From the NCBI GenBank assembly GCA_964201555.1, contig CAXNFL010000001.1:1-41767 (forward strand): a DNA stretch of 41,767 nt, in the 5' to 3' direction. The first letter of the stretch is position 1, and the number at the start of each line of letters is the position of its first letter. This DNA is from Kiritimatiellia bacterium. GTDB lineage: Bacteria > Verrucomicrobiota > Kiritimatiellia > CAIKKV01. Under the pieces are notes generated by a model. It was not told where the DNA came from and ran no database searches. It saw only the letters and a program-made list of their open reading frames with translations. Below, piece after piece: positions 993 to 15,071 of this stretch. The translations under genes were made by a program, and so were the position numbers.

Positions 993-1676
993 TTACGGCT
1001 TCGGGCACTTCTTCAGGCACATGAACCAGTCCAGGCACTTCACGTCGGGATCGGGCTTGGTCATACGGTCCTTGGCCACGCCGCACGATCCCGGCGGAGG
1101 CACGATCACATCGTCGCCCGGCTGCCAGTTGGCCGGCGTGGCGATCTTGTACTGGTCGGAATATTGCATGGCGGTCAGCAGCCGCTTAACCTCCTGCATA
1201 TTCCGCCCGTTCGAGAGCGGGTAATACAGGATCGCCCTGACCTTGCCCTCCGGATCGATGATGAACACCGCGCGCACGGCCTGCGTGTTGCTGGCTCCGG
1301 GCTGGAGCATGCCGAACGCCTTGGAAACCTCCATGGTCAGATCACTGATGACAGGGAACATGACTTCGACATTTTTCATGCCCTTGTAATCGATCTTCTC
1401 TTTGATGGTCCGCAGCCACGCAATATGGCTGTAGGTGCTGTCGATCGAGAGCCCCAGCAGCTTGCAGTTCAGGGCCTCGAACTCGGGCTGCATGCTGGCG
1501 AAGGTCATGAATTCAGTCGTGCACACGGGCGTGAAATCCGCCGGGTGCGAGAAGAAGACCACCCACTTTCCCTTGAAATCATCCGGAAAGTTGAGGGGGC
1601 CCTGGGTTGTTTCCGCCTTGAATGAAGGCGCTTTTTCTCCAATCAATGGCAATCTCGTTACGGGTAGCTCGTTCAC
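993..1676 (-). CDS. 1-Cys/Prx6-type peroxiredoxin (archaeal-like, Cys-rich C-terminal tail)
   Basis: ORF 993..1805. Contains FFSHPADFTPVCTTE (peroxidatic Cys motif) and a C-terminal VKCLDWFMCLKKCP resembling the archaeal Prx RCLDWWFC. I moved the start to GTG 1676, which has AGAAGGAGAG about 7 nt upstream and is followed by the typical N-terminus LPLIGEKAPSF. The 43 upstream codons look non-coding. Confidence 0.9.
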   Translation of the reverse strand: MNELPVTRLPLIGEKAPSFKAETTQGPLNFPDDFKGKWVVFFSHPADFTPVCTTEFMTFASMQPEFEALNCKLLGLSIDSTYSHIAWLRTIKEKIDYKGMKNVEVMFPVISDLTMEVSKAFGMLQPGASNTQAVRAVFIIDPEGKVRAILYYPLSNGRNMQEVKRLLTAMQYSDQYKIATPANWQPGDDVIVPPPGSCGVAKDRMTKPDPDVKCLDWFMCLKKCPKP

Positions 1677-1716
1677 AATGACTCTCCTTCTGTTTGTTGT
1701 CGTTCTACACTTCAGG

Positions 1717-2175
1717 CTAGCCAACGTCGATTTCGGTGCCAACACTCGAATCCGGCATCCGAACTTCCATGAATTTCGCGGATGCCCTTGCCATGAGCTC
1801 TCCATTCTGACGTATTTCGCCCCGCATCTTGAAAAGCGGCGCTAGCGATTCCGCCAGCCGGGCGCTAACCAGAGCGGGCCGATTCACAATTACCGGTTTG
1901 AGGAACCTCACGGCGAGCTCTCCGGTCAATGCAACTCGCCCGTGGGCAAATAGGCAGTTCGTCATGGCGCTGTCCAGGAGCGCGGCAATGACGCCGCCGT
2001 GCAGATATCCCGCGTAGCCTTGGTACTGCCGGTCACAGGGGAACGTCGCCTCCACATGCCCATCCGCGCAGGTGGTGAACACAAGCCGGCATCCGTGCGG
2101 ATGCCCGGCTCCGCAGAGTATGCACTGCGCATGCAGATTTGACTGAAGCACGGCAAGTCCCTCGATGACGGTCAA
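1717..2175 (-). CDS. PaaI-family hotdog-fold thioesterase
   Basis: Contains CILCGAGHPHGCRLVF followed by YAGYLHGGVIAALLDSAM (HGG hotdog signature). The TTG start overlaps the TGA stop of the upstream gene (TTGA). Confidence 0.7.
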   Translation of the reverse strand: MTVIEGLAVLQSNLHAQCILCGAGHPHGCRLVFTTCADGHVEATFPCDRQYQGYAGYLHGGVIAALLDSAMTNCLFAHGRVALTGELAVRFLKPVIVNRPALVSARLAESLAPLFKMRGEIRQNGELMARASAKFMEVRMPDSSVGTEIDVG

Positions 2176-3452
2176 TGATCGCAGACATTCGCCCCGGAAA
2201 CCAGCGTCCCCGCCAGGTACTGGGACACGAGTTTTTCAGGCGTTTCGGCCGGAGCGCCAACCACGACCTTGATGCCGCTCTCGGCAAAGAGCGCCTGGGC
2301 GCGCTGCCCCATGCCCCCTGCGATGATCACCGTGGCGCCCTGCTCGTGCAGCCAGCGCGGGAGAACACCCGGCTCGTGAGGCGGAGGCGTCAACAGTTGC
2401 TTATCCGCGATCTTCTTGGCCTTTTCGTCCACCGCCAACAGGGCGAACTGGGCGCAGTGGCCGAAATGCATGCACAGTTTTCCGTCGGCCAGGGGTATGG
2501 CAATTTTCATGACACGGTCTCCTTCTTTTGTGGTTTGGGATGCGGAAGACTGTTCCCGATGATGATCGGACAGGGCCAGGATGGGCGCGATGACCCGCTC
2601 GAAGGCCTTGGCGGTTTCCGTCTTGTTGTAGTGATAGACAAACGGCGTCCCCGAATCGCACGCCTCGCCAACCTTGGGATCGATCGGGATTCGGCCCAGG
2701 AACGGCACGCCCATCTCGGCGGCCATCCGCTCCCCGCCGCCGCTCTTGAAGATGTCCGTCACCTCGCCGCATTTCGGACAGACGAACCCGCTCATATTTT
2801 CAACTACGCCGAGTACGGGAAGTTCAAGTTGACTGCAGAAATTTAGGGATTTACGCACGTCAGCGGTGGCCACATCCTGAGGCGTGGTCACCACCACGGC
2901 GCCGGCCGGGTTTTTCACCAGTTGGCAAACCGACAACGGTTCGTCGCCCGTTCCGGGGGGTGAATCAATAATGAGATAGTCCAGTTCACCCCACTCCACA
3001 TCCTTGAGAAACTGCTTGATCAGACTCATCTTCAGGGGGCCGCGCCAAATAACCGCATCGTCCCGGCCCCGCAACAGGAACCCGATGGACATCACCTTGA
3101 TGCCGGCGATTTCAACAGGCTGGAGAACGCCTTCCTTTGTCTGTACGGCCGACTCCTCCAGGCGCATCATCTTGGGGATGCTGGGCCCATGGATGTCGAT
3201 ATCCATCAGCCCGACTTTTTTGCCGGCAAGCGCCAGCGAGACGGCCATGTTGGCGGCCACGGTGCTTTTGCCCACGCCGCCCTTGCCAGACATCACCAGG
3301 ATCTTATGACGGATTCGTCCCATCCGTTTTTCGAGTTCCTGCTGTTCCATATCCTCGACGAGTCGCGGCTCAGCCGAATGGTGATTGGCGGAACAGGCTC
3401 CCTGCCCGGCCGATGGATCCTGATTGTGACTGCATTTCCGATTGTTTGCCAT
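2172..3452 (-). CDS. Mrp/NBP35 (ApbC)-family Fe-S carrier ATPase fused to a C-terminal NifX/NifB-C-like (Nitro_FeMo-Co) domain
   Basis: Contains KILVMSGKGGVGKSTVA (deviant Walker A), IIDSPPGTGDE and FVCPKCGE (CPxC). The C-terminal ~110 aa, MKIAIPLADGKLCMHFGHCAQF...VIIAGGMGQRAQ, is the NifX-like signature. AAAGGAAC lies upstream of ATG 3452. Confidence 0.85.
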   Translation of the reverse strand: MANNRKCSHNQDPSAGQGACSANHHSAEPRLVEDMEQQELEKRMGRIRHKILVMSGKGGVGKSTVAANMAVSLALAGKKVGLMDIDIHGPSIPKMMRLEESAVQTKEGVLQPVEIAGIKVMSIGFLLRGRDDAVIWRGPLKMSLIKQFLKDVEWGELDYLIIDSPPGTGDEPLSVCQLVKNPAGAVVVTTPQDVATADVRKSLNFCSQLELPVLGVVENMSGFVCPKCGEVTDIFKSGGGERMAAEMGVPFLGRIPIDPKVGEACDSGTPFVYHYNKTETAKAFERVIAPILALSDHHREQSSASQTTKEGDRVMKIAIPLADGKLCMHFGHCAQFALLAVDEKAKKIADKQLLTPPPHEPGVLPRWLHEQGATVIIAGGMGQRAQALFAESGIKVVVGAPAETPEKLVSQYLAGTLVSGANVCDH

Positions 3453-3464
3453 ACTGTCGTTCCT

Positions 3465-4343
3465 TTAAAATTGAAGTAGCTTCTCCCAGACAGCCCGTAT
3501 ATCGGCGCCAAGCGCACCGGCGTCGGTTTCAACGACCGACAGCCCCTGCAATTGGGCGCGAGTGACGCCCTTGTCATACCTCACGCGCCCCGCGATCGAG
3601 GCCCCGGCCCGGCGGGCCTCGGACTCGATCCGCTCCGTCATCTCCGCGTTCAAATCCCACTTGTTCACGCACACGGCCGCGGGTATAGCGAAGTGGCGTG
3701 CCAATTCCAGCACCCTCCCCAGATCATGAGATCCCGACAGGGTAGGCTCGGTCACAACCAGGACCAGCGAGGCCCCCGTCACCGAGGCGATCACTGCACA
3801 GCCAATACCGGGAGGGCCGTCCACGAGAATCAAGCCGGCCTTCCGCTTCTCGGCAAGTTCGCGCGCGGCTTCCCGAACCTTGCTGACCAGTTTGCCGGAA
3901 TTCTCGCCGCCGGGGATCAGCCGCGCATGAACCATGGGGCCGTGACGGGTGTCGGAAACATACCATTCGCCGCTCAGTCGTTCGGGAAAATCGATCGCCT
4001 TCACGGGACACGACCCCACGCAAACGCCACAACCCTCGCAGGCCGATGGGTCAATGGTGAATACGGAGTCACCTGCGCCGCCATCCGTCCTGTGGACGGC
4101 GTCGAACCGGCACCGGGCCAGGCAGGCTCCGCAACCGATGCAGTCTTTCTGTCGGATCACCGCCTCGTTTCCGCACCGAAAATCCTCGCGTTGCCGGATG
4201 GTGGGCGCCAGCACCAGATGCAGATCCGCGGCGTCCACGTCGCAGTCGGCCAGAACCGCGTTTCCGGCCAACGCCGCGAACGAGGCGGTCAGGCTCGTCT
4301 TGCCCGTGCCTCCTTTGCCGCTGATGACGACGATCTCCCTCAC
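3465..4343 (-). CDS. MinD/CooC-superfamily P-loop ATPase with inserted 2x[4Fe-4S] ferredoxin domain (COG1149-type)
   Basis: Contains VISGKGGTGKTSLT, CIGCGACLARCRFDA, CEGCGVCVGSCPVKA and DGPPGIGCAV. The track ORF extends to 4592, but its first 83 codons overlap the upstream gene. I place the start at GTG 4343, with GAAGGAAG 6 nt upstream and 1 nt after the upstream TGA. Confidence 0.85.
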   Translation of the reverse strand: MREIVVISGKGGTGKTSLTASFAALAGNAVLADCDVDAADLHLVLAPTIRQREDFRCGNEAVIRQKDCIGCGACLARCRFDAVHRTDGGAGDSVFTIDPSACEGCGVCVGSCPVKAIDFPERLSGEWYVSDTRHGPMVHARLIPGGENSGKLVSKVREAARELAEKRKAGLILVDGPPGIGCAVIASVTGASLVLVVTEPTLSGSHDLGRVLELARHFAIPAAVCVNKWDLNAEMTERIESEARRAGASIAGRVRYDKGVTRAQLQGLSVVETDAGALGADIRAVWEKLLQF

Positions 4344-4344
4344 A

Positions 4345-4716
4345 TCACACTTCCTTCGTGTTGTGCGCGTCTGCCGGCCGCGTGACGCCATGGTCGACCA
4401 ACAGGCTGGCGGCGATACGCACGCATTCAACGCAGGGGGTGCGCGTGGTACGCTTGATCTCACGGCACGTGTCCGCGCCTGCGGCCACCACAAACGCCTC
4501 CCGCAAATGCCGGCGCGCTTCCGGTTTGTCGACCAACTGGAGCGCGGCGTGCAAGGCTCCGCACAATCCCGCTTCGGCGCGGCCTCCGCCATGATGCTTG
4601 GCCTTGATGATGTCGTCTTCGGGAATGTTCCGATGCGTTTGAAAGGCGCGCAGGACGCTTTGCGCGCAGTTTAGACGTTCTTTTTGGTAGGCTGACAGGG
4701 CGCGATCAACCGGCAT
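4345..4716 (-). CDS. C_GCAxxG_C_C-family redox-active Cys protein
   Basis: 123 aa with the family's four Cys elements: NCAQSVL, GLCGALHAA, DTCREI and PCVECV. AAGGAGAA lies upstream of ATG 4716, and the gene overlaps the upstream gene by 11 nt. Confidence 0.7.
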   Translation of the reverse strand: MPVDRALSAYQKERLNCAQSVLRAFQTHRNIPEDDIIKAKHHGGGRAEAGLCGALHAALQLVDKPEARRHLREAFVVAAGADTCREIKRTTRTPCVECVRIAASLLVDHGVTRPADAHNTKEV

Positions 4717-5617
4717 ATCTCTTCTCCTTGTTCTTATATCTGTCGGTTAGAGATGTGTCTTTTATCTCCAGCCCGGCGGTCATACGGTTCCAGAGGTGTC
4801 TCATCAGGCCTGTCCATTCCGGCAACACATGAACCGCCATCCGTCCGCGGGAGTAGGCTTCCGCCACGCGCCGGTCATCGGGCAGTTCCAGCAGGAGGGG
4901 TATTTGCGTTTCTCCGCAGTAATCACGCACGCGGCCATCCCCGGAATCGGCCCGATTGATTACCACCCCGTGGGGGATGCCGAGTTGCCGGACCATTTCG
5001 ACGGCCAGTCGCAGATCGTTCAGCCCGAACGGGGTGGGCTCCGTTACCAAGAGCACATAGTCGGCGTCCCGAACCGAGGTCACCACCGGGCACGAGGTTC
5101 CGGGCGGCGCGTCCAGAATGGCAATTCCGTCCGTGATCGCCTTTTTCTTCACGGAACGAATCAGCGGCGGCGCCATGGGCTCGCCCACGTTCAACCGGCC
5201 CTGGACAAAAAGCACACCGGCCGACCTGCCGGTTTCGACCACGCCGATCGGCCGGTTTTGTTCGCGAAGGGCATGTACGGGGCATACGAGTGCGCAGCCG
5301 CCGCATCCATGGCAGAGTTCCGGAAAGACCAGCGGTTTTTTCAACATGGCGATGGCATGGTACCGGCAAACCTCGGAGCATTTGCGGCACCCTGTGCAGA
5401 GTTTTTCGTCAACCACCGGCACGGGAATGCCCACGGGTTCGGACGTCTCCAGGGCCGGCTTAAGAAAGAGGTGGCCGTTCGGTTCCTCGACATCGCAGTC
5501 GAGGTATTGAACCCTTTGGCCGCTGGTTGCCAAGACGCTGGCAAGATTCACCGCGACGGTGGTTTTCCCCGTTCCGCCCTTCCCGCTGGCAATCGAGATT
5601 TTCAAGCTCATGCCCAT
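4706..5617 (-). CDS. MinD/CooC-superfamily P-loop ATPase with inserted 2x[4Fe-4S] ferredoxin domain (COG1149-type), second copy
   Basis: Contains IASGKGGTGKTTVA, CTGCRKCSEVCRYHA, CHGCGGCALVCPVHA and DAPPGTSCPV. It starts 6 nt after the upstream stop. Confidence 0.85.
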   Translation of the reverse strand: MGMSLKISIASGKGGTGKTTVAVNLASVLATSGQRVQYLDCDVEEPNGHLFLKPALETSEPVGIPVPVVDEKLCTGCRKCSEVCRYHAIAMLKKPLVFPELCHGCGGCALVCPVHALREQNRPIGVVETGRSAGVLFVQGRLNVGEPMAPPLIRSVKKKAITDGIAILDAPPGTSCPVVTSVRDADYVLLVTEPTPFGLNDLRLAVEMVRQLGIPHGVVINRADSGDGRVRDYCGETQIPLLLELPDDRRVAEAYSRGRMAVHVLPEWTGLMRHLWNRMTAGLEIKDTSLTDRYKNKEKRYAG

Positions 5618-5623
5618 GCGCCT

Positions 5624-6385
5624 TTACCAATGTCCTTCAACGTTAGCCGCCGGGGCCTCCTTCAACTCACCCGCCTTGAACCGGCCAACGGCTTCTGCGA
5701 CGGTTCCCTCGCCGCACAAATAGACCTTGATCTGCGCCGCATTCAGGAGGCGAAACGCCTTGGGGCCCACATTGCCCGTGATGACGGCGTGCACGCCTAG
5801 TCGCGCGACCGTTTCGCCGGACTGGATGCCCGCGCCTTGCGCCGCATTCAGGTTTTGCTCGTTGTCGTGAGCCTCAGAAGCCCCGGACTCCGCGTCCACA
5901 ACCATGAAACACCTGGCTCTCCCAAAACGCGGATCCACGCTGCTCGACATGCTCGGCCCCGTTGCGGAGATTGCGATTTTCATGACGCCTTCCTTTTTCT
6001 TTCGACCCCCCCGGCCGCCCTGACCCCTGCCTCTTCCACGGCATGGGTTCATCCGGCCGCAACAACCCGGCATGAGAAACTCCATCAAGGTTCCCTCCTG
6101 CCAGGCGAGAATCACATCCTCCACGTCTCCGGCCATGAACGGAACAACCCGGACTCTCGCCCGGGCCAACGCACCTGCCATCTGACCGGATACCGCCCCG
6201 CAAATCAATACCCGCGGCCCCAGCGCCACCAACCGGTCCGCCTGAGCCTGCGGATCCGTTCCCGGCAGGGACTCCACACTCCGGGCATCCACCCGCCCGT
6301 CTTCCACATCAAGGATCTCCACCTGCCTGGCCACATCGAAGACCGGCGAAACCCTTCCATTCCATGTTGCCACCGCCAGTCTCAT
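5624..6385 (-). CDS. Tandem NifX/NifB-C-like (Nitro_FeMo-Co) two-domain protein
   Basis: Domain 1 is MRLAVATWNGRVSPVFDVA...LICGAVSG. The linker is MPGCCGRMNPCRGRGRGQGGRGGRKKKEG. Domain 2 is MKIAISATGPSMSSSVDPRFGRARCFMVVD...VITGNVGPKA. I set the start at ATG 6385, with AAGGAGAGAGAGG upstream. The track start at TTG 6484 lies upstream of the sigma-54 promoter. Confidence 0.8.
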   Translation of the reverse strand: MRLAVATWNGRVSPVFDVARQVEILDVEDGRVDARSVESLPGTDPQAQADRLVALGPRVLICGAVSGQMAGALARARVRVVPFMAGDVEDVILAWQEGTLMEFLMPGCCGRMNPCRGRGRGQGGRGGRKKKEGVMKIAISATGPSMSSSVDPRFGRARCFMVVDAESGASEAHDNEQNLNAAQGAGIQSGETVARLGVHAVITGNVGPKAFRLLNAAQIKVYLCGEGTVAEAVGRFKAGELKEAPAANVEGHW

Positions 6386-6421
6386 GGCCTCTCTCTCCTT
6401 TCGAATGACAAGGATCAGTAC

Positions 6422-6437
6422 TGCATGAACCGTGCCA
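6422..6437 (-). promoter_or_regulatory. Sigma-54 (-24/-12) promoter
   Basis: Minus strand reads TGGCAC-GGTTC-ATGCA against the consensus TGGCAC-N5-TTGCW. It lies 36 nt upstream of ATG 6385, and a sigma-54 activator gene sits directly upstream. Confidence 0.6.
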
Positions 6438-6553
6438 GATACAAGGGCGCCCAAATAGAGACGCAAGTAGTTGCGGCAACGCAAGATGCAGCCGGCAACG
6501 AAATTTGAAACCTATGTTACAGTAGCAGAAATGAATCTGTACGGATGACAAAC

Positions 6554-6571
6554 AGTCGCAAAAATGCGACT
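6554..6571. promoter_or_regulatory. Perfect 18-nt palindrome AGTCGCA-AAAA-TGCGACT (candidate enhancer/UAS or short terminator hairpin)
   Basis: Begins at the first base after the TAG stop of the activator gene, about 117 nt upstream of the -24 element. Confidence 0.3.
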
Positions 6572-7957
6572 CTATTTAGAGTGGGACCGGCCATCCCGAT
6601 CCGGCAGCTCAAGTCCCAAGGCTTTGATTTTTCGAAACAGCGTACTCTTGTGCAGGCCCAGCGCGTGGGCGGCGGCCTGACGGTTGAAACCGCACCCTTC
6701 CAGTGCTGCCCGGATGGCTTGCGCTTCGGCGGCATGAGCCTGGGCGGCCATGCTCTCGCCGGCTGAAGCGGGGACCGGGGGCAATTGACCGGCGAGTTCC
6801 GCCGGCAAATGTCTGCGTTCGATGTTTCCCGCGGCGCACAAGACGAAAGCCCGCTCGATAACATTCTCCAACTCCCGCACGTTGCCAGGATAGTCATGCG
6901 CCATCAGGAGCGCCATGGCCTCGGGAGCGACTCCGGAAATGGCCTTTCCCTGCCGCAGGTTGAATCGCCCGATAAAATGCTCGATGAGCAGGGGGATGTC
7001 CTCCTTGCGCCTCCGCAGAGGCGGCAGGTCCACTTTCACGACATTCAGGCGATAGAACAGGTCTTCGCGAAAAGCGCCTTTGCGGATCTGCTCGGTCAAA
7101 TCACGGTGCGTGGCCGCCACCACCCGCACGTTGGCGTGCAACACACGGGTCCCCCCCAGGGGCTCGTATGTCTTTTCCTGGAGCACGCGAAGAAGGCGGA
7201 CCTGAAGGGCGGGGCTGATGTCGCCGATCTCGTCCAGAAACACCGTGCCGCCCTCGGCCAGCGCAAAGCGGCCCGGTTTATCCCTAGTCGCGCCGGTAAA
7301 GGCGCCCTTCATGTAGCCAAACAGCTCCGATTCCAGCAGGGTGTCGGGCAAGGCGCCGCAGTTGACCGCGATAAACGGCTTGTTTTCCCGCGGGCTCAAG
7401 TTGTGGATGGCACGCGCCAGGAGTTCTTTGCCCGTGCCGGTTTCCCCGAGAATCAGCACCGTCGCATCGCTGGCGGAGACTTGGGGTAAAACATCGAAAA
7501 TACGCCGCATGGCGGCGCTCCGGCTCACAAGGTCCCCCACCTGGACCCGCCCCTCCAACTCCTTGCGCAATTCTTCGACCAGGCTGAGATCCCGAAATGT
7601 CTCCGCCCCTCCGACAATCCGACCCCGTCCATTGCGAAGAATGGCCGTCGACACGGAAATCGGAATCCGGCGGCCATTGGCATCCACGATAAACGCGGAC
7701 TTGTTGACGACAGGCTTGCCGGTCTTGACCGTATGCCGAAGTGCGCAGTCCGTTTCGCACATGCTGGCGCGGAACACATCCGAGCAGGTCTTGCCAATCG
7801 CATCCCGCCGGCGGATGCCCGTGATGATCTCAGCCGCCCGGTTAAAGGAGGTGATACGCCATCCGGCATCGACGGTGAACACACCATCCGAGATGCTTTC
7901 AAGAATGCTTTCGGCGCCGGCCTGCACCCCTGCTTTATCAGCGCGTTCTTTGTTCAT
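6572..7957 (-). CDS. Sigma-54-dependent transcriptional activator (PAS sensor + AAA+ + Fis-type HTH)
   Basis: N-terminal PAS region (ESISDGVFTVDAGWRITSFNRAAEIITG). AAA+ motifs GETGTGKELLARAIH, ESELFGYMKGAFTGA and GTVFLDEIGD. C-terminal HTH AAHALGLHKSTLFRKIK. Confidence 0.9.
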   Translation of the reverse strand: MNKERADKAGVQAGAESILESISDGVFTVDAGWRITSFNRAAEIITGIRRRDAIGKTCSDVFRASMCETDCALRHTVKTGKPVVNKSAFIVDANGRRIPISVSTAILRNGRGRIVGGAETFRDLSLVEELRKELEGRVQVGDLVSRSAAMRRIFDVLPQVSASDATVLILGETGTGKELLARAIHNLSPRENKPFIAVNCGALPDTLLESELFGYMKGAFTGATRDKPGRFALAEGGTVFLDEIGDISPALQVRLLRVLQEKTYEPLGGTRVLHANVRVVAATHRDLTEQIRKGAFREDLFYRLNVVKVDLPPLRRRKEDIPLLIEHFIGRFNLRQGKAISGVAPEAMALLMAHDYPGNVRELENVIERAFVLCAAGNIERRHLPAELAGQLPPVPASAGESMAAQAHAAEAQAIRAALEGCGFNRQAAAHALGLHKSTLFRKIKALGLELPDRDGRSHSK

Positions 7958-7976: not shown

Positions 7977-10900
7977 CTACTGGAGCGTTTTCTTTTCCGT
8001 CTTCCCGCCGTAAATCATCACATACGCGGTGGGGATGACGAGCAGGGTGAAGGCCGTGGAGACGAACAGCCCGAAGATGATGGCCCAGGCGAGCCCGCTG
8101 AAGATCGGGTCAAGCGTGATGGGCCACGTTCCCAGCATTGTGGTGGAGGCCGTCAGGAAGATCGGCCTGAACCGCACGGCCCCCGCCTCGAACACCGCGT
8201 CGCGCACGGTCGCGCCGCGCTCCACCGCGTTTCGGATGAAATCCACCAGAAGGATGCCGTTCCGGACCACGATCCCGGCCAGGGTGATCATGCCGATCAT
8301 GGCCGTGGCCGTAAAGAAGACCGGATTGCCGAATCCGCCCACGGGCTTGTCCACGATCAGGTTGAGCAGCCAGAAGCCGGGCAGGATGCCGATGAGCGTG
8401 AGCGGGATCGACATCATGATGACGCCGGGCAGCGCGTACGATCCCGTCTCATAGACCAACAGGACATAAATGGCCACCAGCGCCGCCGCGAAGGCGATGC
8501 CCAGGTCGCGGAACACGTCGAGCGTGATCTTCCATTCGCCTTCTCCCCGCCAGTCGATGCTCAGCCCTTCGGGCAGCGGGTGTTCCGAAAACTTTTTCTG
8601 AAGATTCAGCACGGCATACGCCGGCCCGCGCCCCGCCATCTCGGCCGTCACATACACCACGCGCTCCAGGTTCTTATGGAAGATCGTCTTCTCGACCGAC
8701 CCGCTTTCGAAGCTTCCCAGCTCGCCCAGCTGAACCGCGCGCCCGCTTCGCCCCTTCACGACAATGTTCTTCAGCAACGCGATATCGGACCGCTTGTCGC
8801 GCGGCAGGCGCAACATGATCGGCACCTCGTTCTGCTGCCCGGGATCGTGAAGCGTGCCTCCGGGCATCCCCTGCAGCGCAAGGGCGAGCGTCTGGGTGAT
8901 ATCCTCCGCGGAAATCCCGTTCAGGCCGGCCTTCTCGCGATCCACGCGGAAGAAGAACTCCGCCTGGTCGGCCTCGACGGTGTCATCCGCATCCACGACG
9001 CCCGGCTCCTTCTCAAGCCAGCCCTTGACCACTCCGGCGGCCGCGATCAGATCCTTGTAGTCGTGATGGGGCTGTCCCCGAATCTCGGCCACCACCGTCG
9101 AAAGAACGGGCGGGCCCGGCGGAATTTCAACCAGCTTGACGAGCGCGTTCCGGCGCCGGGCAATGGCGTCCACCTCGTTCCGGATGCGAAGGATAATGGA
9201 ATGGCTGTCCATTATCCGCTTGCTGCGATGAAGCAGGTTCACCCGGATGTCGGCCACGTGGGGCCCCTGCCGCAAATAATAGTGGCGCACGAGCCCGTTG
9301 AAGTCCATGGGCGACCCGGCGCCCACCAGGGAGGTGAAGTCGGTCACCTCGGGCAGCGTGCGAAGATAGTCCTCCAGCTCGCGCACCACGGCATCCGTGG
9401 TTTCCAGCGTGGCCGATTCGGGCATGTCCACAAGCATCTGGAACTCGTTCTTGTTGTCGAAAGGCAGCATCTTGAGCGGAACCCCGCCGGTCTTTACCAG
9501 CATCAGCGAGAGGACAAACAGCACGCCGGTTCCGGCCAGCAGCAGCACGCCGTTGCGGCGGGAATCCGCGAACGGTCGCATGGCTTTGCTGTAGATCCGG
9601 TATCCCATCGTTCGCTTGACGTCGAACTCCTCGACGACCGCGTCGGTCTTTTCGCGCAGCAGCTTGTCGGAAACCCAGGGCGTGATGGCGAACGACACCA
9701 GCATCGACGCCAGCATGGCAAGCGGCACGTTGAGCGCCATGGGGCGCATATAGGGGCCCATCATGCCCGTGATGAAAAACAGCGGCAGAAACGCGGCGAT
9801 CACGGCCAGCGTCGCCAGGATCACGGGCGGCATCACCTCGTTCATGGCCATCGAGATGGCCTTCAGGCGCGGATACTTCTTCATCGAAAGATGGCGGTAA
9901 ATGTTTTCCACCGCCACGATGGGATCATCCACCAGCAGCCCAAGCGCCAGGATGAGCGCGAACAGCGTCACACGGTTGATCGTGTAACCCGCGAGATAAT
10001 TCACCAGGAGCGTCAAGGAATAGGTAATCGGAATGGCCAGCGCCACGATCAGGCTCACCCGCCAGGTCATGGCGACGGCGATCAGAACGATGACGGTGAT
10101 GATGGCCTCAACCAGGCTCTCGACGAGGCCGTTGACCTTGTCATTCGCGGTTTCGCCGTAATCGCGCGTCACGCGCGTTTGCATTTCATCCGGAATGATC
10201 TTTCCGCGCATCGCGCCCAGGGCGGATTCGACTTCGCGGGAAACCCAGACCGCATTGCTGCCCTTCTTCTTCGCGACGGCGATCGTGACCGCGGGCAGGG
10301 ACGCGCCGCCCGCGAGGTGCGCCGCCTCCGCTCCGGCGGCCGGCCCGAAGCCGATCCGGCTATAGCTCTGCTGCTCGGCCGGGCCGTCCTCCACCCGCGC
10401 CACATCGCGCAGGTACACGGGGCGGTCCGCATGGATCCCCACCATGAGGTTGCGAACCTCGTCGGCGTTCCTTAAAAAGGGGCCCGCCTCGACGCGCACG
10501 GAGGCGTTGCCCTGGTCAAACCCGCCGCTTTCCCCCTTGGCGTTGGAAACCTTCAGCGCGCCCGCCACTTCCATCGGCGAGAGCCCGTAGGCCGAAAGGC
10601 GCTCCATGTCCAGGTACACATGAAGCTGGCGGCTTCGGCCGCCGTGAATCGTGATGTTGCCGGTGTTGGGAATGGTCTGAAGCCGGCCGACCACCTCTTC
10701 GGCAACGCGATAAAGCGCATGCTCGTCGTACCGGTCGCTGTAAAGCGCCACGTTCACGATCGGCACATCGTCAATCTCGATCGGCTTCACCACCCAGCCG
10801 GCGATGCCGGGCGTCGTTTTGTCGATATTCTGGAAGATCTTGTTGTAGAGCTTGATCAGGCTCTTCTCGCGATCCTGCCCGACCGTGAACCGCACCGTGA

Positions 10901-11198
10901 CAACCGCCATGCCGGGGCGGGACATGGAATAGACATACTCCACGCCGTCGATCTGGTAGAGCATCCGCTCGAGCCGGGACGAAACCAGCCGCTCGACCTC
11001 CTGGGCGGAGCCGCCCGGATAGGCCACCATCACATCCGCCAGCGGAACCACGATCTGCGGCTCCTCCTCGCGCGGAGTGAGGAACAGCGCGGCCGCCCCG
11101 GCGACCAGGGAAATGATGATCAGCAGGACGGCCAGGTTCCCCTTCAGGAAGGCCTCGATCACCCCGCCCACCATGGAATGTTTGGGTTCGCTCTCCAT
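7977..11198 (-). CDS. RND efflux transporter permease (AcrB/HAE-like)
   Basis: 1073 aa with a 12-TM architecture. N-terminus is FLTPREEEPQIVVP. The TM4 motif is LGLLVDDPIVAVENIYRH, which by memory resembles AcrB GLLVDDAIVVVEN rather than the CzcA/CusA motifs. Confidence 0.9.
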   Translation of the reverse strand: MESEPKHSMVGGVIEAFLKGNLAVLLIIISLVAGAAALFLTPREEEPQIVVPLADVMVAYPGGSAQEVERLVSSRLERMLYQIDGVEYVYSMSRPGMAVVTVRFTVGQDREKSLIKLYNKIFQNIDKTTPGIAGWVVKPIEIDDVPIVNVALYSDRYDEHALYRVAEEVVGRLQTIPNTGNITIHGGRSRQLHVYLDMERLSAYGLSPMEVAGALKVSNAKGESGGFDQGNASVRVEAGPFLRNADEVRNLMVGIHADRPVYLRDVARVEDGPAEQQSYSRIGFGPAAGAEAAHLAGGASLPAVTIAVAKKKGSNAVWVSREVESALGAMRGKIIPDEMQTRVTRDYGETANDKVNGLVESLVEAIITVIVLIAVAMTWRVSLIVALAIPITYSLTLLVNYLAGYTINRVTLFALILALGLLVDDPIVAVENIYRHLSMKKYPRLKAISMAMNEVMPPVILATLAVIAAFLPLFFITGMMGPYMRPMALNVPLAMLASMLVSFAITPWVSDKLLREKTDAVVEEFDVKRTMGYRIYSKAMRPFADSRRNGVLLLAGTGVLFVLSLMLVKTGGVPLKMLPFDNKNEFQMLVDMPESATLETTDAVVRELEDYLRTLPEVTDFTSLVGAGSPMDFNGLVRHYYLRQGPHVADIRVNLLHRSKRIMDSHSIILRIRNEVDAIARRRNALVKLVEIPPGPPVLSTVVAEIRGQPHHDYKDLIAAAGVVKGWLEKEPGVVDADDTVEADQAEFFFRVDREKAGLNGISAEDITQTLALALQGMPGGTLHDPGQQNEVPIMLRLPRDKRSDIALLKNIVVKGRSGRAVQLGELGSFESGSVEKTIFHKNLERVVYVTAEMAGRGPAYAVLNLQKKFSEHPLPEGLSIDWRGEGEWKITLDVFRDLGIAFAAALVAIYVLLVYETGSYALPGVIMMSIPLTLIGILPGFWLLNLIVDKPVGGFGNPVFFTATAMIGMITLAGIVVRNGILLVDFIRNAVERGATVRDAVFEAGAVRFRPIFLTASTTMLGTWPITLDPIFSGLAWAIIFGLFVSTAFTLLVIPTAYVMIYGGKTEKKTLQ

Positions 11199-11201
11199 GG
11201 C

Positions 11202-12239
11202 CTAGTTCCCCTTCACCGGGTTCACGAGAACCGCGTCGCCAGCGGCAAGCCCCGCCAGCACCTCGACCCGATCGCCGGTGCGCAGGCCCGTCCGCACGGC
11301 GCGCCGGATCGCGCGCCCGTCCTGAACCACCTGGGCCATTTCGATCTGGCCGACCGAATAGACGGCCGACGCCGGAATCATGAACGCCTCGCGGGCGTCG
11401 TCCGCCACCCACAGGCGCCCGAAGGTGCCGGGCAACACCTGCCCGCCGACCCCCTCGATGTGCACCTTCACCATCTGGGTGCGACTCAGCGGATCGATCT
11501 CGCTGACGATCTGGCGCACCTGGCCCTCATACCGCCCGGCCGGCCGATCGAGGGTAACCTCCACCTTCTGGCCGATCGGCAGCTTGTCCAGGAGCCGGAC
11601 GGGAACCGGGACCTCCAGCTGCATGTTCAGCGGATCATAAACGGCCAGCAGCGTCTGCCCCGGGTTGGCCAGATCGCCGGGCTCGACGCGGCGGTCGGTG
11701 ACGAACCCGTTCAGCGGGGAGTCGACCCGCGCATAGGTCAGCATGACCTTCGCGCGATCCAGCTGGGCGCGGGACACCTCGAAAAGCGATTGCGCGGCGG
11801 TGAGGGCCTGCTCGGTGGCGGACTGGGCTTCAAACAGCCGCCGGGTCCGGTTCAGCTCCGTTTCCGCCTGCTTGAACTGCGCCTCCGCCGCCGACACCTG
11901 TTCGCGGATTTCACGATCATCAAGCGTCGCCAGCGGCTGGCCGTTTGTGACCGCGCTTCCCGCGGACACGAAAATTTCCTTCACGTACGCCGACATCCGC
12001 GCGCTGAGGTTGACGCGCCGCTCGGACGAGACGGTGCCCACCACATCCACGCGCGGCGAGAGGGATTCGGCTTTGACCGTGAACGCTTCGGAGCCTTTGG
12101 GAACCTCCACGCCGGGTTTGACTTCCACGCGGCCCGCTTCGACACGGGCGCGGCCCGCGCCCACGCTCCACACGATAACCCCGGCCAGGACAATCAGCCC
12201 TGCCGCCGTCTTCAGATAACCCTGCTGTTTTTCAGTCAC
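11202..12239 (-). CDS. RND efflux periplasmic adaptor (MFP/HlyD family)
   Basis: N-terminal anchor, a coiled-coil region (REQVSAAEAQFKQAETELNRTRRLFE) and beta-barrel/lipoyl-type motifs. The GTG start overlaps the TolC-like stop (GTGA), and the gene ends 3 nt before the RND ATG. Confidence 0.85.
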   Translation of the reverse strand: MTEKQQGYLKTAAGLIVLAGVIVWSVGAGRARVEAGRVEVKPGVEVPKGSEAFTVKAESLSPRVDVVGTVSSERRVNLSARMSAYVKEIFVSAGSAVTNGQPLATLDDREIREQVSAAEAQFKQAETELNRTRRLFEAQSATEQALTAAQSLFEVSRAQLDRAKVMLTYARVDSPLNGFVTDRRVEPGDLANPGQTLLAVYDPLNMQLEVPVPVRLLDKLPIGQKVEVTLDRPAGRYEGQVRQIVSEIDPLSRTQMVKVHIEGVGGQVLPGTFGRLWVADDAREAFMIPASAVYSVGQIEMAQVVQDGRAIRRAVRTGLRTGDRVEVLAGLAAGDAVLVNPVKGN

Positions 12240-13585
12240 GGCATCGACTCCCCGTTAATATTTTTTGCGTATTGTTTCACCAGCGTCCCCCGTGCGCGCT
12301 CCAGGTTCGACAGCGCGGTCAGGCAATCATAAAGCGCGGCCACGTTCCGGGTGCGTGTTCCGGAGAGGCCCACCTGCGCGGTCAGCAGCTCCGGAATATC
12401 GGCCGCGCCCAGCTTGTATTTTTCCCGTGTGATGCGGAGCGCCTCCTCGGCATTCTCGATGCTCTTGCGCGCCACCGCCAGCCGGTCCCAGGCTTCGCCG
12501 GCCTGAAGGGAAGCGGACACGAGGTCCAGCTTGAGGTTATTCGCCGCCTTGTCCACGTCATCCCGGGCGGCCCGCTCCTGCGCTTCGGCGTTCGCCACGC
12601 CGGCGCTTCTCTGGAAGCCGTCGAAAAGCGTCACCTCGGCCTGCACGCCCACCATGTAACTCTGCTCAAACTCGGAGGCGCCGCCGCTGTTCCAATCCAT
12701 GGACCCGAATCCGTTCACGACGGGCGCATACTGCCTCCGGGCTTTCTGCACGCCCGCATTCCGAACAATCGCCATCTGCTCGGCGGCCAGATATTCGGGC
12801 CGCTCGCGGATAACGGCCGGATCTGCGCCCGCCTCGGGCCTCGCGGCCAGCAACTCCCTCTTCACGGGCATGTCGTTCGTGCCCGCAAGATCGGCTCCGA
12901 TCGCGGTGTTCAGCGCGGCCAGGGAAAGCGCCACGCCGTTGCGCGACCGGATCAGCTCGTCGTTCGCCTGGGCCAGCTGCACGTCGAGGTTCAGCACATC
13001 CGTCTTCACGGCTCCGCCGGCGGCCAGCCGCTCGCGGGCTACGCGAAGGCTCTCTTCCAGCGTCTGGACCGTCTCCTCCCGCACGGCGGTAAACGCCTCG
13101 GCCTGCAGCACGGCGTAATACCCCCGGGTCACCTGGTGGATCAATTCGTTCTGAAGGCCCCGCAGCACCAGCCGTGAGATTTCGGAGCCCTCGCGAGCCA
13201 TGCGCGTGTCCAGTTCGCGCCGGCCGAAGTCAAACAGCCGGTACTGCACCCCGAGGCTGAGGGCGAGATTGTCGGTGTCCTCGGGATTGTTGAAGTCGGA
13301 CTGCAGCGAGGCGCTCCGCTGGTTCAGCTGCATCATGAACGCCTGCGGCGGGTTATCCGTCCGGGCGTAGGCGGCGGAGGCGCCCAGCCGCGGATAATAG
13401 GCGGACTGCGCCTCCCGGAGCGACGCCTGAGCGGCCTTCACCCGCTCCGAGGCGGCGCGGACATCGGGATTCTGGCGAAGCGCGGCGGCAATGCAGGCGT
13501 CCAGCGTCACGGCCTGCGCGCTGGCAACCAGCAACAAAACACACAAAACCGGCAGAAGCCGGCTCCATCCCGTCATTCGTTTCAT
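12236..13585 (-). CDS. TolC-family outer-membrane efflux protein
   Basis: Signal peptide MKRMTGWSRLLPVLCVLLLVASAQA, then LDACIAAALRQNPDVRAASERVKAAQASL and duplicated TolC-type repeats. I set the start at ATG 13585 (residue 34 of the track ORF). Confidence 0.85.
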   Translation of the reverse strand: MKRMTGWSRLLPVLCVLLLVASAQAVTLDACIAAALRQNPDVRAASERVKAAQASLREAQSAYYPRLGASAAYARTDNPPQAFMMQLNQRSASLQSDFNNPEDTDNLALSLGVQYRLFDFGRRELDTRMAREGSEISRLVLRGLQNELIHQVTRGYYAVLQAEAFTAVREETVQTLEESLRVARERLAAGGAVKTDVLNLDVQLAQANDELIRSRNGVALSLAALNTAIGADLAGTNDMPVKRELLAARPEAGADPAVIRERPEYLAAEQMAIVRNAGVQKARRQYAPVVNGFGSMDWNSGGASEFEQSYMVGVQAEVTLFDGFQRSAGVANAEAQERAARDDVDKAANNLKLDLVSASLQAGEAWDRLAVARKSIENAEEALRITREKYKLGAADIPELLTAQVGLSGTRTRNVAALYDCLTALSNLERARGTLVKQYAKNINGESMP

Positions 13586-13599
13586 CCCGTTCAATCCTT

Positions 13600-13833
13600 T
13601 CACTTCCCGCAGCCACAGTCGCTGCCACAGCCGCCGGCGGCGGAAGGCACGCCACAGCGCCGGAGAATGATCTCCAGCGGACAAAATCCGGTGAACGCCG
13701 ACTGGAACAGGTTCAAGCCCACAAAGCCGGTGAAGAAAAACCAGCCGGGATGCACCCAGTAGCCCAGCGACACGCTGGTAACCACAAAGACGCCCGCCAC
13801 CATCCGTACAATTCGTTCCGTTGTCATCATCAT
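13600..13833 (-). CDS. DUF2892 (YgaP-like) two-TM membrane protein with Cys-rich C-terminal tail
   Basis: [57 protein letters not shown] matches the DUF2892 pattern. The tail is [27 protein letters not shown] lies immediately upstream of the ATG triplet at 13833-13825. Confidence 0.7.
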
Positions 13834-13841
13834 TTCTCCTA

Positions 13842-14009
13842 TCAACGAAATCCCCGGCCGATCAAGGCCCCCATGACCACGCCCCAGATCGTGCTGATCC
13901 AGGGGTTGCTCGTGATCGGACACGTCCCGGTCGAGCAGCCCACGAAGCGGTAAAGGGCAAAGCCGCCCAGTCCGCCCACCACTCCGCCAATCAGCATTCG
14001 CATCATCAT
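13842..14009 (-). CDS. 55-aa membrane mini-protein with GCxxGxCPI motif (DUF6132-like)
   Basis: Below the ORF-track size cut-off; hand translated as [55 protein letters not shown] followed by a stop. AAGGAGGTG lies 3 nt upstream of ATG 14009. The TGA at 13844-13842 sits 8 nt before the next start. Confidence 0.65.
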
Positions 14010-14030
14010 GGCCACCTCCTTCTATCAGGA

Positions 14031-14059
14031 TTAGACCCTCGAACGATCAAAAAGTTACA
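14031..14059 (-). promoter_or_regulatory. Candidate ECF-type promoter TGTAAC-N17-GTCTAA
   Basis: Minus strand, inside the 63-nt gap between the anti-sigma stop and the mini-protein ATG. The AAC -35 and GTC-type -10 with a 17-nt spacer fit the generic ECF pattern. The SD and ATG follow within 22 nt. Confidence 0.4.
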
Positions 14060-14072
14060 GGAAATCGTCTCC

Positions 14073-14357
14073 TCAGCTCTTTTTTTTCCAATTCTTGCGG
14101 AGAACCTCATGCAGGCGATCCCGGAATTGGATGGGCAATTCGCAGGGCTCGTCCTTCTTATACAGCGTGATGGTCTTCCGCACATTGTCCACCACCACAC
14201 GGCAGGGGTTGCAGCCGGCCAGGTGGGCTTCCAGCTCCTTGCAGGCGGAAAGCTCCACCCCGCCGTCCACATACTGGTTCAACAGGGCGAGCAATTCGTC
14301 GCAGGTCGCGCCCTGTTTGCCGCCGAGGCGATGCGTCGTTTTACGTTTATCAGGCAT
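14073..14357 (-). CDS. Soluble zinc-binding anti-sigma factor (ZAS, RsrA-like)
   Basis: 94 aa with no TM segment. Contains ATCDELLALLNQYVDGG...SACKELEAHLAGCNPC, which includes the HxxxCxxC motif. ATG 14357 overlaps the sigma gene stop by 8 nt. Confidence 0.8.
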   Translation of the reverse strand: MPDKRKTTHRLGGKQGATCDELLALLNQYVDGGVELSACKELEAHLAGCNPCRVVVDNVRKTITLYKKDEPCELPIQFRDRLHEVLRKNWKKKS

Positions 14358-15036
14358 GGATGGCCTCTTTCCTGGCGTGCCCGGACATTCCCGGCGGATG
14401 CTCCACCGGCTCGTACCGGCTCGCCGCATCCCCGAAATCGCGTGTCAGCCGCTCGCGCAACTGCATGCGCGCCCGCAACAAGCGGACCTTCACATTCGCT
14501 TCGCTGATCCGCAGGGCTTTCGCCGTTTCCTTGATGGATAACGACTCCACATCGCGGAGAAGAAAGACCGCGCGGTGCCCAGGATCCAGAAGCGCAATGG
14601 CGTCGTCGAGCAGCCGGCGTGTTTCCGCGTGCTGCGCCAGCCGATCGGGCGTCTCGCGCCAGTCGGCAATATACTCGGGATGCGGAATGCGCCCGTCGGC
14701 CCCCGGATCCACGGCGGCCTCCAGGGATGTGGACGGAAGGCCGCGCCGTTTGCGCACCACCTTGAGGGATGCATTCACGGCAATCGTGGCCAGCCAGGTG
14801 GAGAAGGAGGCCTCTTCCCGGAACCCGCCCAGCCGCCGCATGGCGCTGAGAAAGGTCTGCTGCGTGACATCCTGGGCGTCCTCCTCCGAGCCGGTCACCC
14901 GCCGGGTCAGCCCGTAAATCCGCCGCTCATGCCGGGAGACAAGCGCTTCGAAAGCCGTCAGGCCGCCGTCCTTCGCCAGACGAACCAGCTCCCGGTCCTC
15001 CGCGGAATCAACGGGCTGTGGTTTCGGACTTTGCAT
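14350..15036 (-). CDS. ECF (sigma-70 family group 4) RNA polymerase sigma factor
   Basis: Region 2 is FEALVSRHERRIYGLTRRVTGSEEDAQDVTQQTFLSAMRRLGGFREEASFSTWLATIAVN. Region 4 is RAVFLLRDVESLSIKETAKALRISEANVKVRLLRARMQLRERL. I set the start at ATG 15036 on the basis of the promoter immediately upstream. Confidence 0.85.
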   Translation of the reverse strand: MQSPKPQPVDSAEDRELVRLAKDGGLTAFEALVSRHERRIYGLTRRVTGSEEDAQDVTQQTFLSAMRRLGGFREEASFSTWLATIAVNASLKVVRKRRGLPSTSLEAAVDPGADGRIPHPEYIADWRETPDRLAQHAETRRLLDDAIALLDPGHRAVFLLRDVESLSIKETAKALRISEANVKVRLLRARMQLRERLTRDFGDAASRYEPVEHPPGMSGHARKEAIHA

Positions 15037-15042
15037 CCCGTA

Positions 15043-15071
15043 GTTATATTCTCTACTAACGGGACGGTCAA
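15043..15071 (-). promoter_or_regulatory. Sigma-70-type promoter TTGACC-17-TATAAC, 6 nt from the sigma-factor ATG (leaderless candidate)
   Basis: Minus strand read base by base: TTGACC gtcccgttagtagagaa TATAAC tacggg ATG. Confidence 0.5.

Follow-up and report, generated by a model that had tools for sequence, protein, structure and literature searches.

A probable orp (ORange Protein complex) operon under an OrpR-type activator in a Kiritimatiellia genome

The stretch of DNA analysed in this study, which we call the window, comprises the first 41,767 nucleotides of contig CAXNFL010000001.1 of a Kiritimatiellia bacterium (assembly GCA_964201555.1) and carries seven closely packed minus-strand genes, numbered 1 to 7 in the direction of transcription, behind the gene for a sigma-54 activator. 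Our results suggest that this locus is an orp gene cluster together with its dedicated regulator OrpR, arranged as a collinear single operon, and we put the probability of this reading at roughly 0.85. The identification is favored because gene 1 matches the ORP structure 2WFB, the gene 5 product passes the MrpORP equivalog model, the activator carries the OrpR sensor motif, the proteins are 50-58% identical to those of a Desulfobaculum cluster, the promoter and an upstream palindrome are conserved, and the gene content agrees. The ORP complex has been studied since 2011, almost only in Desulfovibrio (PMC3897727, PMC6345978, PMC8359166). In Desulfovibrio vulgaris Hildenborough (DvH) the genes are orp3/orp4 (DVU2103/4), orp5 (DVU2105), orpR (DVU2106), orp7, orp8 and orp9 (DVU2109, MrpORP); the orp3/orp4 products are MinD-like with two [4Fe-4S] motifs each, orp8 encodes the ORP protein, and the genes form two divergent operons with sigma-54 promoters that depend on OrpR and integration host factor (IHF) (PMC3897727, PMC6345978, PMC8359166, PMC4641369). 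Orp3, Orp4, Orp5, Orp8 and Orp9 form a five-protein complex (PMC3897727, PMC6345978), and loss of orp expression leads to defects in morphology and division (PMC8359166). The gene content of the window appears to equal that of this published complex plus orp7. The original prediction, which regarded the window genes as an operon of orphan proteins, described them rightly, and since the module has already been described it is no orphan.

Homologues of the two-domain protein encoded by gene 1 number about 1,500, the nearest of which, the window's own record apart, are about 60% identical. Scanning species-representative genomes with the two-domain sequences gave at least 563 relatives, and the best 80 were kept (L002-L081) and annotated by phmmer with the window proteins as queries, together with precomputed Pfam labels; this 80-locus survey is biased toward relatives of the window and does not contain DvH, D. 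gigas or G20. The Pfam family Nitro_FeMo-Co was matched twice in gene 1, and an AlphaFold2 model of its product (mean pLDDT 84) has two NifX-fold domains with a disordered Gly/Arg linker between them. For the C-terminal domain the best PDB sequence match was the Desulfovibrio gigas ORP structure 2WFB (E=4.7e-22), which was also the top structural match of the model in Foldseek, with a target-normalised TM score of 0.93, a root-mean-square deviation of 1.3 A and 45% identity; TM1290, MTH1175, NafY and NifX ranked below it. The same domain is 58% identical to the Orp8 counterpart in Desulfobaculum sp. (L032), a cultured species of the Desulfovibrionaceae. The N-terminal domain has a conserved Cys62 and a PGCC motif (Cys108/109). 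Stand-alone homologues exist for each half of the protein, and those of the N-terminal half, about 140 aa long and sharing Cys62 and PGCC, are in most genomes encoded directly before the ORP gene, in the orp7 position; gene 1 is therefore an orp7-orp8 fusion, the N-terminal domain of which would be the equivalent of DVU2107. Separate neighboring genes encode the two halves in 54 of 59 genome loci, Desulfobaculum included, and in five they are fused. In many relatives the two ORFs share a frame with one stop codon between them; programmed read-through or selenocysteine insertion between Orp7 and Orp8 was considered and rejected, as there were 22 same-frame and 32 other-frame pairs and TAA, TGA and TAG stops were mixed; the separate open reading frames (ORFs) in the relatives are ordinary adjacent genes. 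According to the literature in PMC6345978 and PMC3897727, D. gigas ORP carries a non-covalent [S2MoS2CuS2MoS2]3- Mo-Cu-S cluster. In the window protein the ORP domain is instead fused behind an Orp7-type domain, in which Cys62 and PGCC would permit covalent ligation of a cluster.

Genes 2 and 4 each encode a P-loop ATPase with a GKGGTGKT sequence and two CxxCxxCxxxC motifs in its translation, and Pfam assigned CbiA/ParA with two Fer4 domains (CbiA with Fer4_21/Fer4 for gene 4). The products are 50% (gene 2) and 53% (gene 4) identical to the ATPases of the Desulfobaculum cluster. The best PDB relatives of the gene 2 product are archaeal MinD proteins, matched in the ATPase parts that flank the ferredoxin domain, and a PDB sequence search found no full-length solved relative of the MinD-ferredoxin protein, only separate ATPase and ferredoxin parts. 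Both MinD-ferredoxin ATPases are matched by one and the same ORF, some 610-660 aa long, in five relatives (L006:11897-13729, L031:4860-6797, L042:12422-14251, L049:14720-16705 and L050:11417-13279); these long ORFs appear to be Orp3-Orp4 fusions, consistent with a heterodimer. Gene 3, which has homologues at the same position in L004, L005, L017 and L027, scored 37 bits against PF09719 (cut-off 27), and no solved relative of this C_GCAxxG_C_C protein was found in the PDB sequence search. We take Orp5 of DvH (DVU2105) to be a member of the same family. In the papers on the DvH complex Orp5 is described as resembling a [2Fe-2S] protein (PMC6345978, PMC3897727).

The gene 5 product, with Pfam matches to ParA/NUBPL and Nitro_FeMo-Co, scored 562 bits against the NCBIfam equivalog NF041136, 'iron-sulfur cluster carrier protein MrpORP', for which the cut-off is 450 bits, and is 54% identical to its Desulfobaculum counterpart. 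Its translation contains GKGGVGKS, CPKC, CMHFGHC, TPPPHEPGVLP and a C-terminal CDH, and the signatures published for MrpORP's Di-Nase domain are CXHFGHC, TPPPHXPGXXP and CDH (PMC6345978). The protein thus shares the equivalog, the Walker A sequence, CPKC and the Di-Nase motifs with Orp9/DVU2109 and Dde_3202, but its N-terminal extension contains two cysteines, whereas those of DvH and G20 have a four-cysteine motif. MrpORP hands a [4Fe-4S] cluster to Orp3/Orp4 in vitro (PMC6345978), and this transfer agrees with the Fe-S carrier role proposed earlier for the Mrp protein. The Mrp and NifX-like domains are encoded by separate genes in most relatives and are fused in 10 of 45 loci.

The gene immediately upstream of the operon encodes the putative OrpR. 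Pfam detected Sigma54_activat (2.9e-70), PAS_9, AAA_lid_14 and HTH_8 in 6572-7957, and the PAS domain carries the predicted [4Fe-4S]-binding motif CSDVFRASMCETDC (C-x-D-x6-C-x3-C), whose spacing is identical to that of C52, E54, C61 and C65 in DvH OrpR. In DvH the residues C52, E/D54, C61 and C65 are needed for redox sensing and have been proposed as [4Fe-4S] ligands (PMC8359166). The window activator and the orp-linked activator of Desulfobaculum sp. are 52% identical over the full length and 51% in the PAS domain, and of 46 PAS activators linked to clusters in relatives, 45 retain the cysteine motif. The likeness to DvH OrpR (DVU2106) extends to the PAS-AAA+-HTH_8 architecture, the spacing of the cysteines and the acidic residue, and the position next to the target promoter; the difference is that here the gene lies upstream of its target and is co-directional with it. 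The redox behavior of the window protein can be predicted from that of DvH OrpR, which works at low redox potential and loses its activity when the potential goes up by about +140 mV (PMC8359166). Two relatives have two tandem OrpR-like activators before the cluster (L022:5143-7960 and L037:6588-9821), both with the Cys triad, and in the second paralogue the motif reads CFDIFRTEVCH..C. OrpR has been stated to seem restricted to the delta-Proteobacteria (PMC8359166). Activators with the OrpR cysteine motif adjoin orp-like clusters in metagenome-assembled genomes (MAGs) labelled Lentisphaerota, Verrucomicrobiota, Planctomycetota and Hydrogenedentota, and the same linkage occurs in MAGs labelled Zixibacteria, Ignavibacteria, Krumholzibacteriota, Aminicenantes and Clostridia; as far as sequences can tell, our locus survey contradicts that restriction.

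The candidate promoter, TGGCACGGTTCATGCA, agrees with TGGCACG-N4-TTGCW at 15 of 16 positions (6437-6422, minus strand) and lies 37 nt 5' of the first gene. The pattern TGGCAC-N5-WTGCW has one match in the 41.8-kb window where 0.07 would be expected by chance, which bears out the single sigma-54 promoter proposed earlier. TGGCAC stands at the same place in all 15 upstream regions that were aligned over 215 nt (the window and 14 relatives), and a strict regular expression detected the promoter at 29 of 58 loci. Some 117 bp upstream of the promoter's -24 element, starting a few bases past the orpR stop codon, there is a perfect palindrome with the arms AGTCGCA and TGCGACT around a TTTT spacer (AGTCGCATTTTTGCGACT, 6571-6554), which has no second match in the window at a tolerance of up to three mismatches. 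Its CGCA-TTTT-TGCG core resembles the experimentally mapped OrpR site of DvH, GGGCGYRTTTTGCGCCC, an imperfect palindrome (PMC8359166), and we regard it as a putative OrpR binding site. The arms AGTCGC...GCGACT are kept at the same distance in the 14 relatives and the spacer is variable; the relatives' layout is one of two palindromes about 33 bp apart followed at a fixed distance by TGGCAC. At the corresponding position, 33 bp centre-to-centre from the first palindrome, the window has AGATTCATTTCTGCTACT (6538-6521), which matches at 13 of 18 positions and, weak in itself, aligns with the well-conserved second copy of the relatives. IHF is required at the DvH orp promoters (PMC3897727). A convincing IHF site between the upstream activating sequence and the promoter was looked for and not found: only the core of WATCAANNNNTTR is present, as CAA-N4-TTG at 6473-6464, and the best match to the full-length consensus has two mismatches and lies on the opposite strand. 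An AA-N4-TTR block is aligned at the position of the candidate core in the relatives.

The features of the locus are collected in Table 1. All seven ORFs of the original prediction, between 993 and 6385, were recovered at its coordinates and with its tight spacing from translations of the window, and every one of its domain calls was above the Pfam gathering cut-off in a profile-HMM check. A public ENA contig with the same DNA has independent gene calls that agree, apart from a difference of two codons at the start of gene 2; the NCBI call of the thioesterase gene (gene 6) is eight codons shorter. The gaps between consecutive genes are +6, -11, +1, +12, -4 and +40 nt, and a simple scan detected neither a sigma-70-like nor a terminator-like site between the seven genes.

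Table 1. Coordinates of the orp-like locus and of the genes upstream of orpR in the window
Feature	Coordinates	Strand	Basis
orpR: sigma-54 enhancer-binding protein, PAS - AAA+ - HTH_8, 461 aa	6572..7957	-	Pfam + motif
candidate OrpR upstream activating sequence, palindrome	6554..6571	-	pattern scan + conservation
degenerate second palindrome copy	6521..6538	-	alignment with relatives, inference
weak candidate IHF core, CAA-N4-TTG	6464..6473	-	core match
sigma-54 promoter TGGCACGGTTCATGCA, -24 GG / -12 GC	6422..6437	-	consensus match + conservation
gene 1, orp7-orp8 fusion, 253 aa	5624..6385	-	Pfam, PDB match, AlphaFold2 model
gene 2, orp3/orp4-type MinD-like ATPase with inserted 2x[4Fe-4S] ferredoxin domain, 303 aa	4706..5617	-	Pfam
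gene 3, C_GCAxxG_C_C cysteine protein, 123 aa, orp5 position	4345..4716	-	Pfam PF09719
gene 4, second orp3/orp4-type MinD-ferredoxin ATPase, 292 aa, GTG start	3465..4343	-	Pfam; ENA gene call identical
gene 5, mrpORP (orp9), Mrp/NBP35 Fe-S carrier + NifX-like 'Di-Nase' domain, 426 aa	2172..3452	-	NCBIfam NF041136
gene 6, PaaI-like hotdog-fold protein, 152 aa (144 aa NCBI call)	1717..2175	-	Pfam 4HBT, TIGR00369
gene 7, Prx6-type ('archaeal-type') peroxiredoxin, 227 aa, GTG start, ribosome-binding site GAAGGAG	993..1676	-	Pfam, NF009668
RND (resistance-nodulation-division) efflux unit: AcrB-type	7977-11198	-	Pfam
RND efflux unit: membrane-fusion ORF	11202-12239	-	position only
RND efflux unit: OEP/TolC-type protein	12236-13684	-	Pfam
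two small membrane ORFs, upstream of RND efflux unit	13600-13923 and 13842-14015		
ZAS-type anti-sigma factor, HLAGCNPC, upstream of RND efflux unit	14073-14429		
ECF (extracytoplasmic function) sigma factor, upstream of RND efflux unit	14350-15090		

The window and DvH clusters have in common the protein set, namely two MinD-like ATPases, a cysteine protein, two NifX-fold units and an Mrp-NifX fusion, as well as the mode of control, with a sigma-54 promoter, an adjacent PAS activator and a palindrome of the CGCA-TTTT-TGCG type. They differ in that DvH has two divergent operons flanking orpR, whereas the window has one collinear operon downstream of it, with orp7 and orp8 fused, a PaaI-like gene and a Prx6 gene appended, and of the IHF site only a core; the palindrome arms read AGTCGCA here and GGGCGYR in DvH. 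The closest relatives of the window locus are found in Lentisphaerota, Verrucomicrobiota, Kiritimatiellia and Planctomycetota MAGs, while DvH is a deltaproteobacterium. The NifX fold is also common to the NifX, NafY and NifB-C carriers and to the archaeal MTH1175/TM1290-type proteins found with COG1149 ATPases, and the pairing with P-loop ATPases that contain a ferredoxin insert is typical of anaerobes; there is no nitrogenase context here, and the ORP subfamily is closer than NifX or NafY in both sequence and structure. The statement in the original prediction that such neighborhoods have no experimentally defined function does not hold for the orp cluster, the sigma-54/OrpR/IHF regulation, complex, MrpORP protein and redox sensing of which have all been studied. 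An existing functional assignment for exactly this module, an eventuality that the prediction had itself raised, is accordingly found at least in part.

Several points weigh against the identification. Orthology to DVU2103-2109 would follow indirectly, through the ORP of D. gigas, through the NCBIfam model and through loci of Desulfovibrionaceae. The activator has a GAFTGA loop where DvH OrpR has GAFTDA. The second palindrome of the window is degenerate, the IHF site matches only in its core, and the first palindrome could double as the orpR terminator. There is no evident logic in co-transcribing a peroxidase with genes for which oxidation is predicted to mean shut-off, and the redox direction itself is predicted by analogy with DvH. 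Finally, the physiological role of the ORP complex is not established even in DvH.

The original prediction favored an oxidative- or thiol-stress-induced system for the storage, delivery or repair of Fe-S clusters, with the peroxiredoxin and an upstream ECF/anti-sigma pair in one stress regulon. The operon does end with the peroxiredoxin gene, which the closest relatives keep in that place, MrpORP has been demonstrated to donate Fe-S clusters in vitro (PMC6345978), PaaI-like genes lie beside NifU and cysteine desulfurase genes in L084, L086 and L088, and L083 also has an ECF/zf-HC2 pair within about 7 kb of its OrpR and PaaI genes. We nevertheless consider stress induction unlikely: the complete OrpR sensor motif belongs to a type of activator that in DvH turns its targets off when the potential rises, and in DvH the Fe-S carrier has the Orp proteins as its clients, which are not repair factors for other proteins (PMC6345978). 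The ECF pair, which had been taken as an upstream thiol switch tied to the module, is not adjacent to it but lies 6 kb away (14073-15090), behind a complete RND efflux unit (7977-13684) that separates it from orpR. A functional link between the orp genes and the ECF/ZAS pair is thus unsupported, and the pair more plausibly heads and belongs to the efflux unit. Much the least credible of the alternatives is that the cluster is a remnant or satellite of the nitrogenase (nif) cofactor pathway with the structural genes outside the window. Nitro_FeMo-Co domains are present, and the best NCBIfam match of the activator is NifA, but at 365 bits this match is far below the 529-bit cut-off, the best sequence and structure match of gene 1 is ORP and neither NifX nor NafY, and the Mrp fusion passes the MrpORP model. 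No nifHDK, nifEN or nifB was found in the 41.8 kb: the corresponding domains were absent from the long ORFs of the window, those between roughly 33 and 41.7 kb giving no Pfam match at all, the negative results on which absence in that part is based, in keeping with the earlier statement that this is not a nitrogenase cluster. Among the neighbors in 88 related loci, searched by phmmer with window and accessory proteins and by Pfam labels, with no nif-specific queries, no nif structural gene was seen.

The palindrome at 6554-6571 might be the intrinsic terminator of orpR and nothing else, with the operon driven by some other, unlinked sigma-54 activator. It starts immediately past the orpR stop codon, and our simple scan labelled it terminator-like for its 7-bp stem followed by GTTTGT. 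We favor a protein-binding site because it is the arm sequence, and not mere pairing, that is conserved across relatives whose proteins are 59-85% identical, usually in two copies and with no T-tails; the resemblance to the mapped OrpR site, the sensor motif in nearly all of the cluster-linked PAS activators and the usual co-localisation of DvH activators with their targets (PMC8359166) also speak against a terminator alone, which we regard as very improbable. A different kind of proposal concerns the physiological output and is compatible with the orp identity: the ORP module could serve mainly to synthesise or traffic a special metal-sulfur cofactor, rather than as a structural or division complex, with NifX-fold carriers, MinD/Mrp insertases, and steps of hotdog and, in relatives, radical-SAM chemistry, the window representing a minimal version. 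Its appeal lies in the three NifX-fold domains, with NafY and NifEN-bound NifX among the structural neighbors, in the Mo-Cu-S cluster held by D. gigas ORP, in the radical SAM/BATS, ARMT1/DUF89, metallo-beta-lactamase and DsrE genes embedded in clusters of relatives, and in the occurrence of NifX-like > PaaI > NifU > NifS strings. However, the window has none of these accessory enzymes, no target enzyme is identifiable, the cluster of the MrpORP Di-Nase domain is not efficiently transferable (PMC6345978), and the sole phenotype reported in DvH is morphological (PMC8359166), so that we hold this proposal to be doubtful, if worth keeping in mind.

If the locus is an orp cluster, its working can be proposed by analogy with DvH. 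At low redox potential OrpR would hold a [4Fe-4S]2+ cluster in its PAS domain, sit on the palindrome or palindromes and remodel sigma-54 RNA polymerase for transcription. When the potential rises the cluster would be oxidised or lost and the PAS domain would block activation without release of the DNA, so that synthesis of the oxygen-labile Orp metalloproteins would stop. MrpORP would load [4Fe-4S] clusters onto both MinD-ferredoxin ATPases, the NifX-fold domains would hold a non-covalent or cysteine-bound metal-sulfur cluster (Mo-Cu-S in D. gigas ORP), and the Orp proteins would assemble into one complex. The operon is probably an anaerobiosis-on, oxidation-off unit, and the induction under redox stress that was originally suggested is probably reversed in direction, given that DvH OrpR is inactivated on a rise in potential (PMC8359166). 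The peroxiredoxin, presumably co-transcribed, would most plausibly scavenge peroxide around the labile complex, and a peroxidase under a promoter that oxidation would turn off might most simply be there to protect the complex pre-emptively for as long as it exists.

The best 80 of the 563 or more relatives begin with MAGs that bear the labels Victivallales/Lentisphaerota, Verrucomicrobiota, Kiritimatiellia and Planctomycetota (the PVC group); Hydrogenedentota, Zixibacteria, Ignavibacteria and others come next, and Desulfobacterota are few. The source of the window is most probably an uncultured anaerobe of the PVC group. The order orpR > orp7 > orp8 > ATPase > (GCAxxG) > ATPase > Mrp/NifX recurs widely, for the most part in collinear form; divergent, DvH-like layouts occur in L021 and L069. 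The orp-like clusters of relatives have further genes embedded in them, encoding radical SAM proteins (some with BATS) in 17 loci, ARMT1/DUF89-like proteins in 29 and metallo-beta-lactamases in 24, as well as PS-decarboxylase-like, DsrE-like and CMD proteins; examples are L005:6626-7795 and 9909-11437, L019:11161-12267 and 13720-17516, L085 and L087. A homology search of the window with the accessory proteins found neither radical SAM nor the other embedded genes, and by this comparison of sequences the window cluster would be a stripped-down version. One PS-decarboxylase-like match at 3727-4050 was discarded as an artefact, as the L019 query was an over-extended ORF that overlaps the MinD gene in another frame.

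The two genes at the end of the operon are recurrent partners that are new in comparison with the known orp clusters, namely a hotdog subfamily marked by H-x2-C-x2-C and, within the clade of the window, a Prx6. The gene 6 product scored 35.9 bits against PF03061 (4HBT; cut-off 20.6) and 42.5 bits against TIGR00369 (cut-off 36.6), which would place it among the PaaI/hotdog thioesterases at the level of the superfamily, and 17 of 18 sequences share the N-terminal H-x2-C-x2-C. With 234 matches at E<=1e-5 among 5.8 billion proteins, this is a small subfamily. A PaaI-like gene lies 3' of a NifX-type gene in 16 of the 43 loci with enough downstream sequence, and six of eight distant members (44-51% identical) are encoded directly beside a Nitro_FeMo-Co gene. 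Full orp-like clusters stand beside the PaaI-like gene in L085 and L087, the latter also with a Prx6-type peroxiredoxin. From these gene neighborhoods we infer that the hotdog protein is a recurrent accessory of NifX-like and orp clusters. Strings of NifX-like > PaaI-like > NifU_N > cysteine desulfurase genes, which connect the hotdog subfamily with genes of Fe-S assembly, were seen at three distant loci from metagenomes (L084:6540-9327, L086:5568-8534 and L088:5626-8230), in two of them with a PAS/sigma-54 activator or a DUF364 gene alongside.

The gene 7 product matched AhpC-TSA and 1-cysPrx_C in Pfam and scored 328 bits against NF009668 (cut-off 211); its best PDB match is 5OVQ (5e-70), with further matches to the 2CV4/3W6G peroxiredoxin group. 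It contains a peroxidatic FTPVCTTE and a C-terminal CLDWFMC, and so has the PVCTTE, the 1-cysPrx_C domain and the C-terminal C-x5-C of the Prx6-subfamily peroxiredoxins of thermophiles and archaea (5OVQ, 2CV4, 3W6G), from which it differs in being encoded by the last gene of a sigma-54/OrpR-type operon. A simple scan found no promoter-like or terminator-like site in the 40-nt gap before gene 7. The earlier link between the module and a peroxiredoxin is borne out, and the closest relatives have it too: a peroxiredoxin gene was found no more than 2 kb downstream at 5 of 38 loci and also in L002, and the loci in which it is close downstream on the same strand (L002, L005, L017, L019, L020 and L026) are essentially the clade of the window. 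The gene order including PaaI and Prx is shared with L005, L017 and L019, and L017 matches the window exactly. Judging from gene neighborhoods, the peroxiredoxin seems to be a clade-specific addition.

The locus represents no new kind of system. It is of the known orp/OrpR kind, found outside the Deltaproteobacteria, and offers a complete unit of regulator and operon well beyond that group, with the Fe-S sensor motif and the binding-site architecture intact. Of the defining features that can be tested by sequence, all are present but for the family of Orp5 and the IHF site, which are less clear. Its genes can be annotated as orpR, orp7-8, orp3/4, orp5-like and mrpORP in place of "NifX family" or "hypothetical". 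Fusions that occur naturally, Orp7-Orp8 in the window and Orp3-Orp4 and Mrp-NifX among its relatives, mark proteins that act together, the ORP complex is a conserved, anaerobe-specific metalloprotein set, and the comparative clues, especially the strings with NifU and NifS, give testable hints on ORP function. A broader proposal, which is tentative and on balance not the outcome we expect, is that ORP/OrpR is a widely transferred anaerobe module across phyla, that the hotdog subfamily is an unrecognised core partner, and that ORP is an assembly and trafficking line for low-potential metal-sulfur clusters and not a cell-division device. If that were true, the module would span Lentisphaerota, Verrucomicrobiota, Kiritimatiellia, Planctomycetota, Hydrogenedentota, Zixibacteria and other phyla, and its partners would vary, with Prx6 in this clade and radical-SAM, DUF89 and NifU/NifS genes elsewhere.

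Some minor observations concern the window and the peroxiredoxin. Between 33300 and 41767, in a region of 63-70% G+C, each strand of the window has long ORFs, several in all and 185-870 aa in length, that gave no Pfam match at E<=1e-5. The peroxiredoxin is 95-96% identical to those of L005, L017 and L019, the other orp-cluster proteins of which are 52-88% identical to those of the window, a contrast that suggests either conservation of unusual strength or a recent transfer. The peroxiredoxin belongs to a 90%-identity cluster of 239 members, among them a protein from a Kiritimatiellia MAG. A homologue of the PaaI subfamily in ENA, P0211 (158 aa), has the precomputed Pfam labels 1-cysPrx_C and 4HBT, and may be a gene-call or frameshift artefact at the PaaI-Prx junction or a real fusion.

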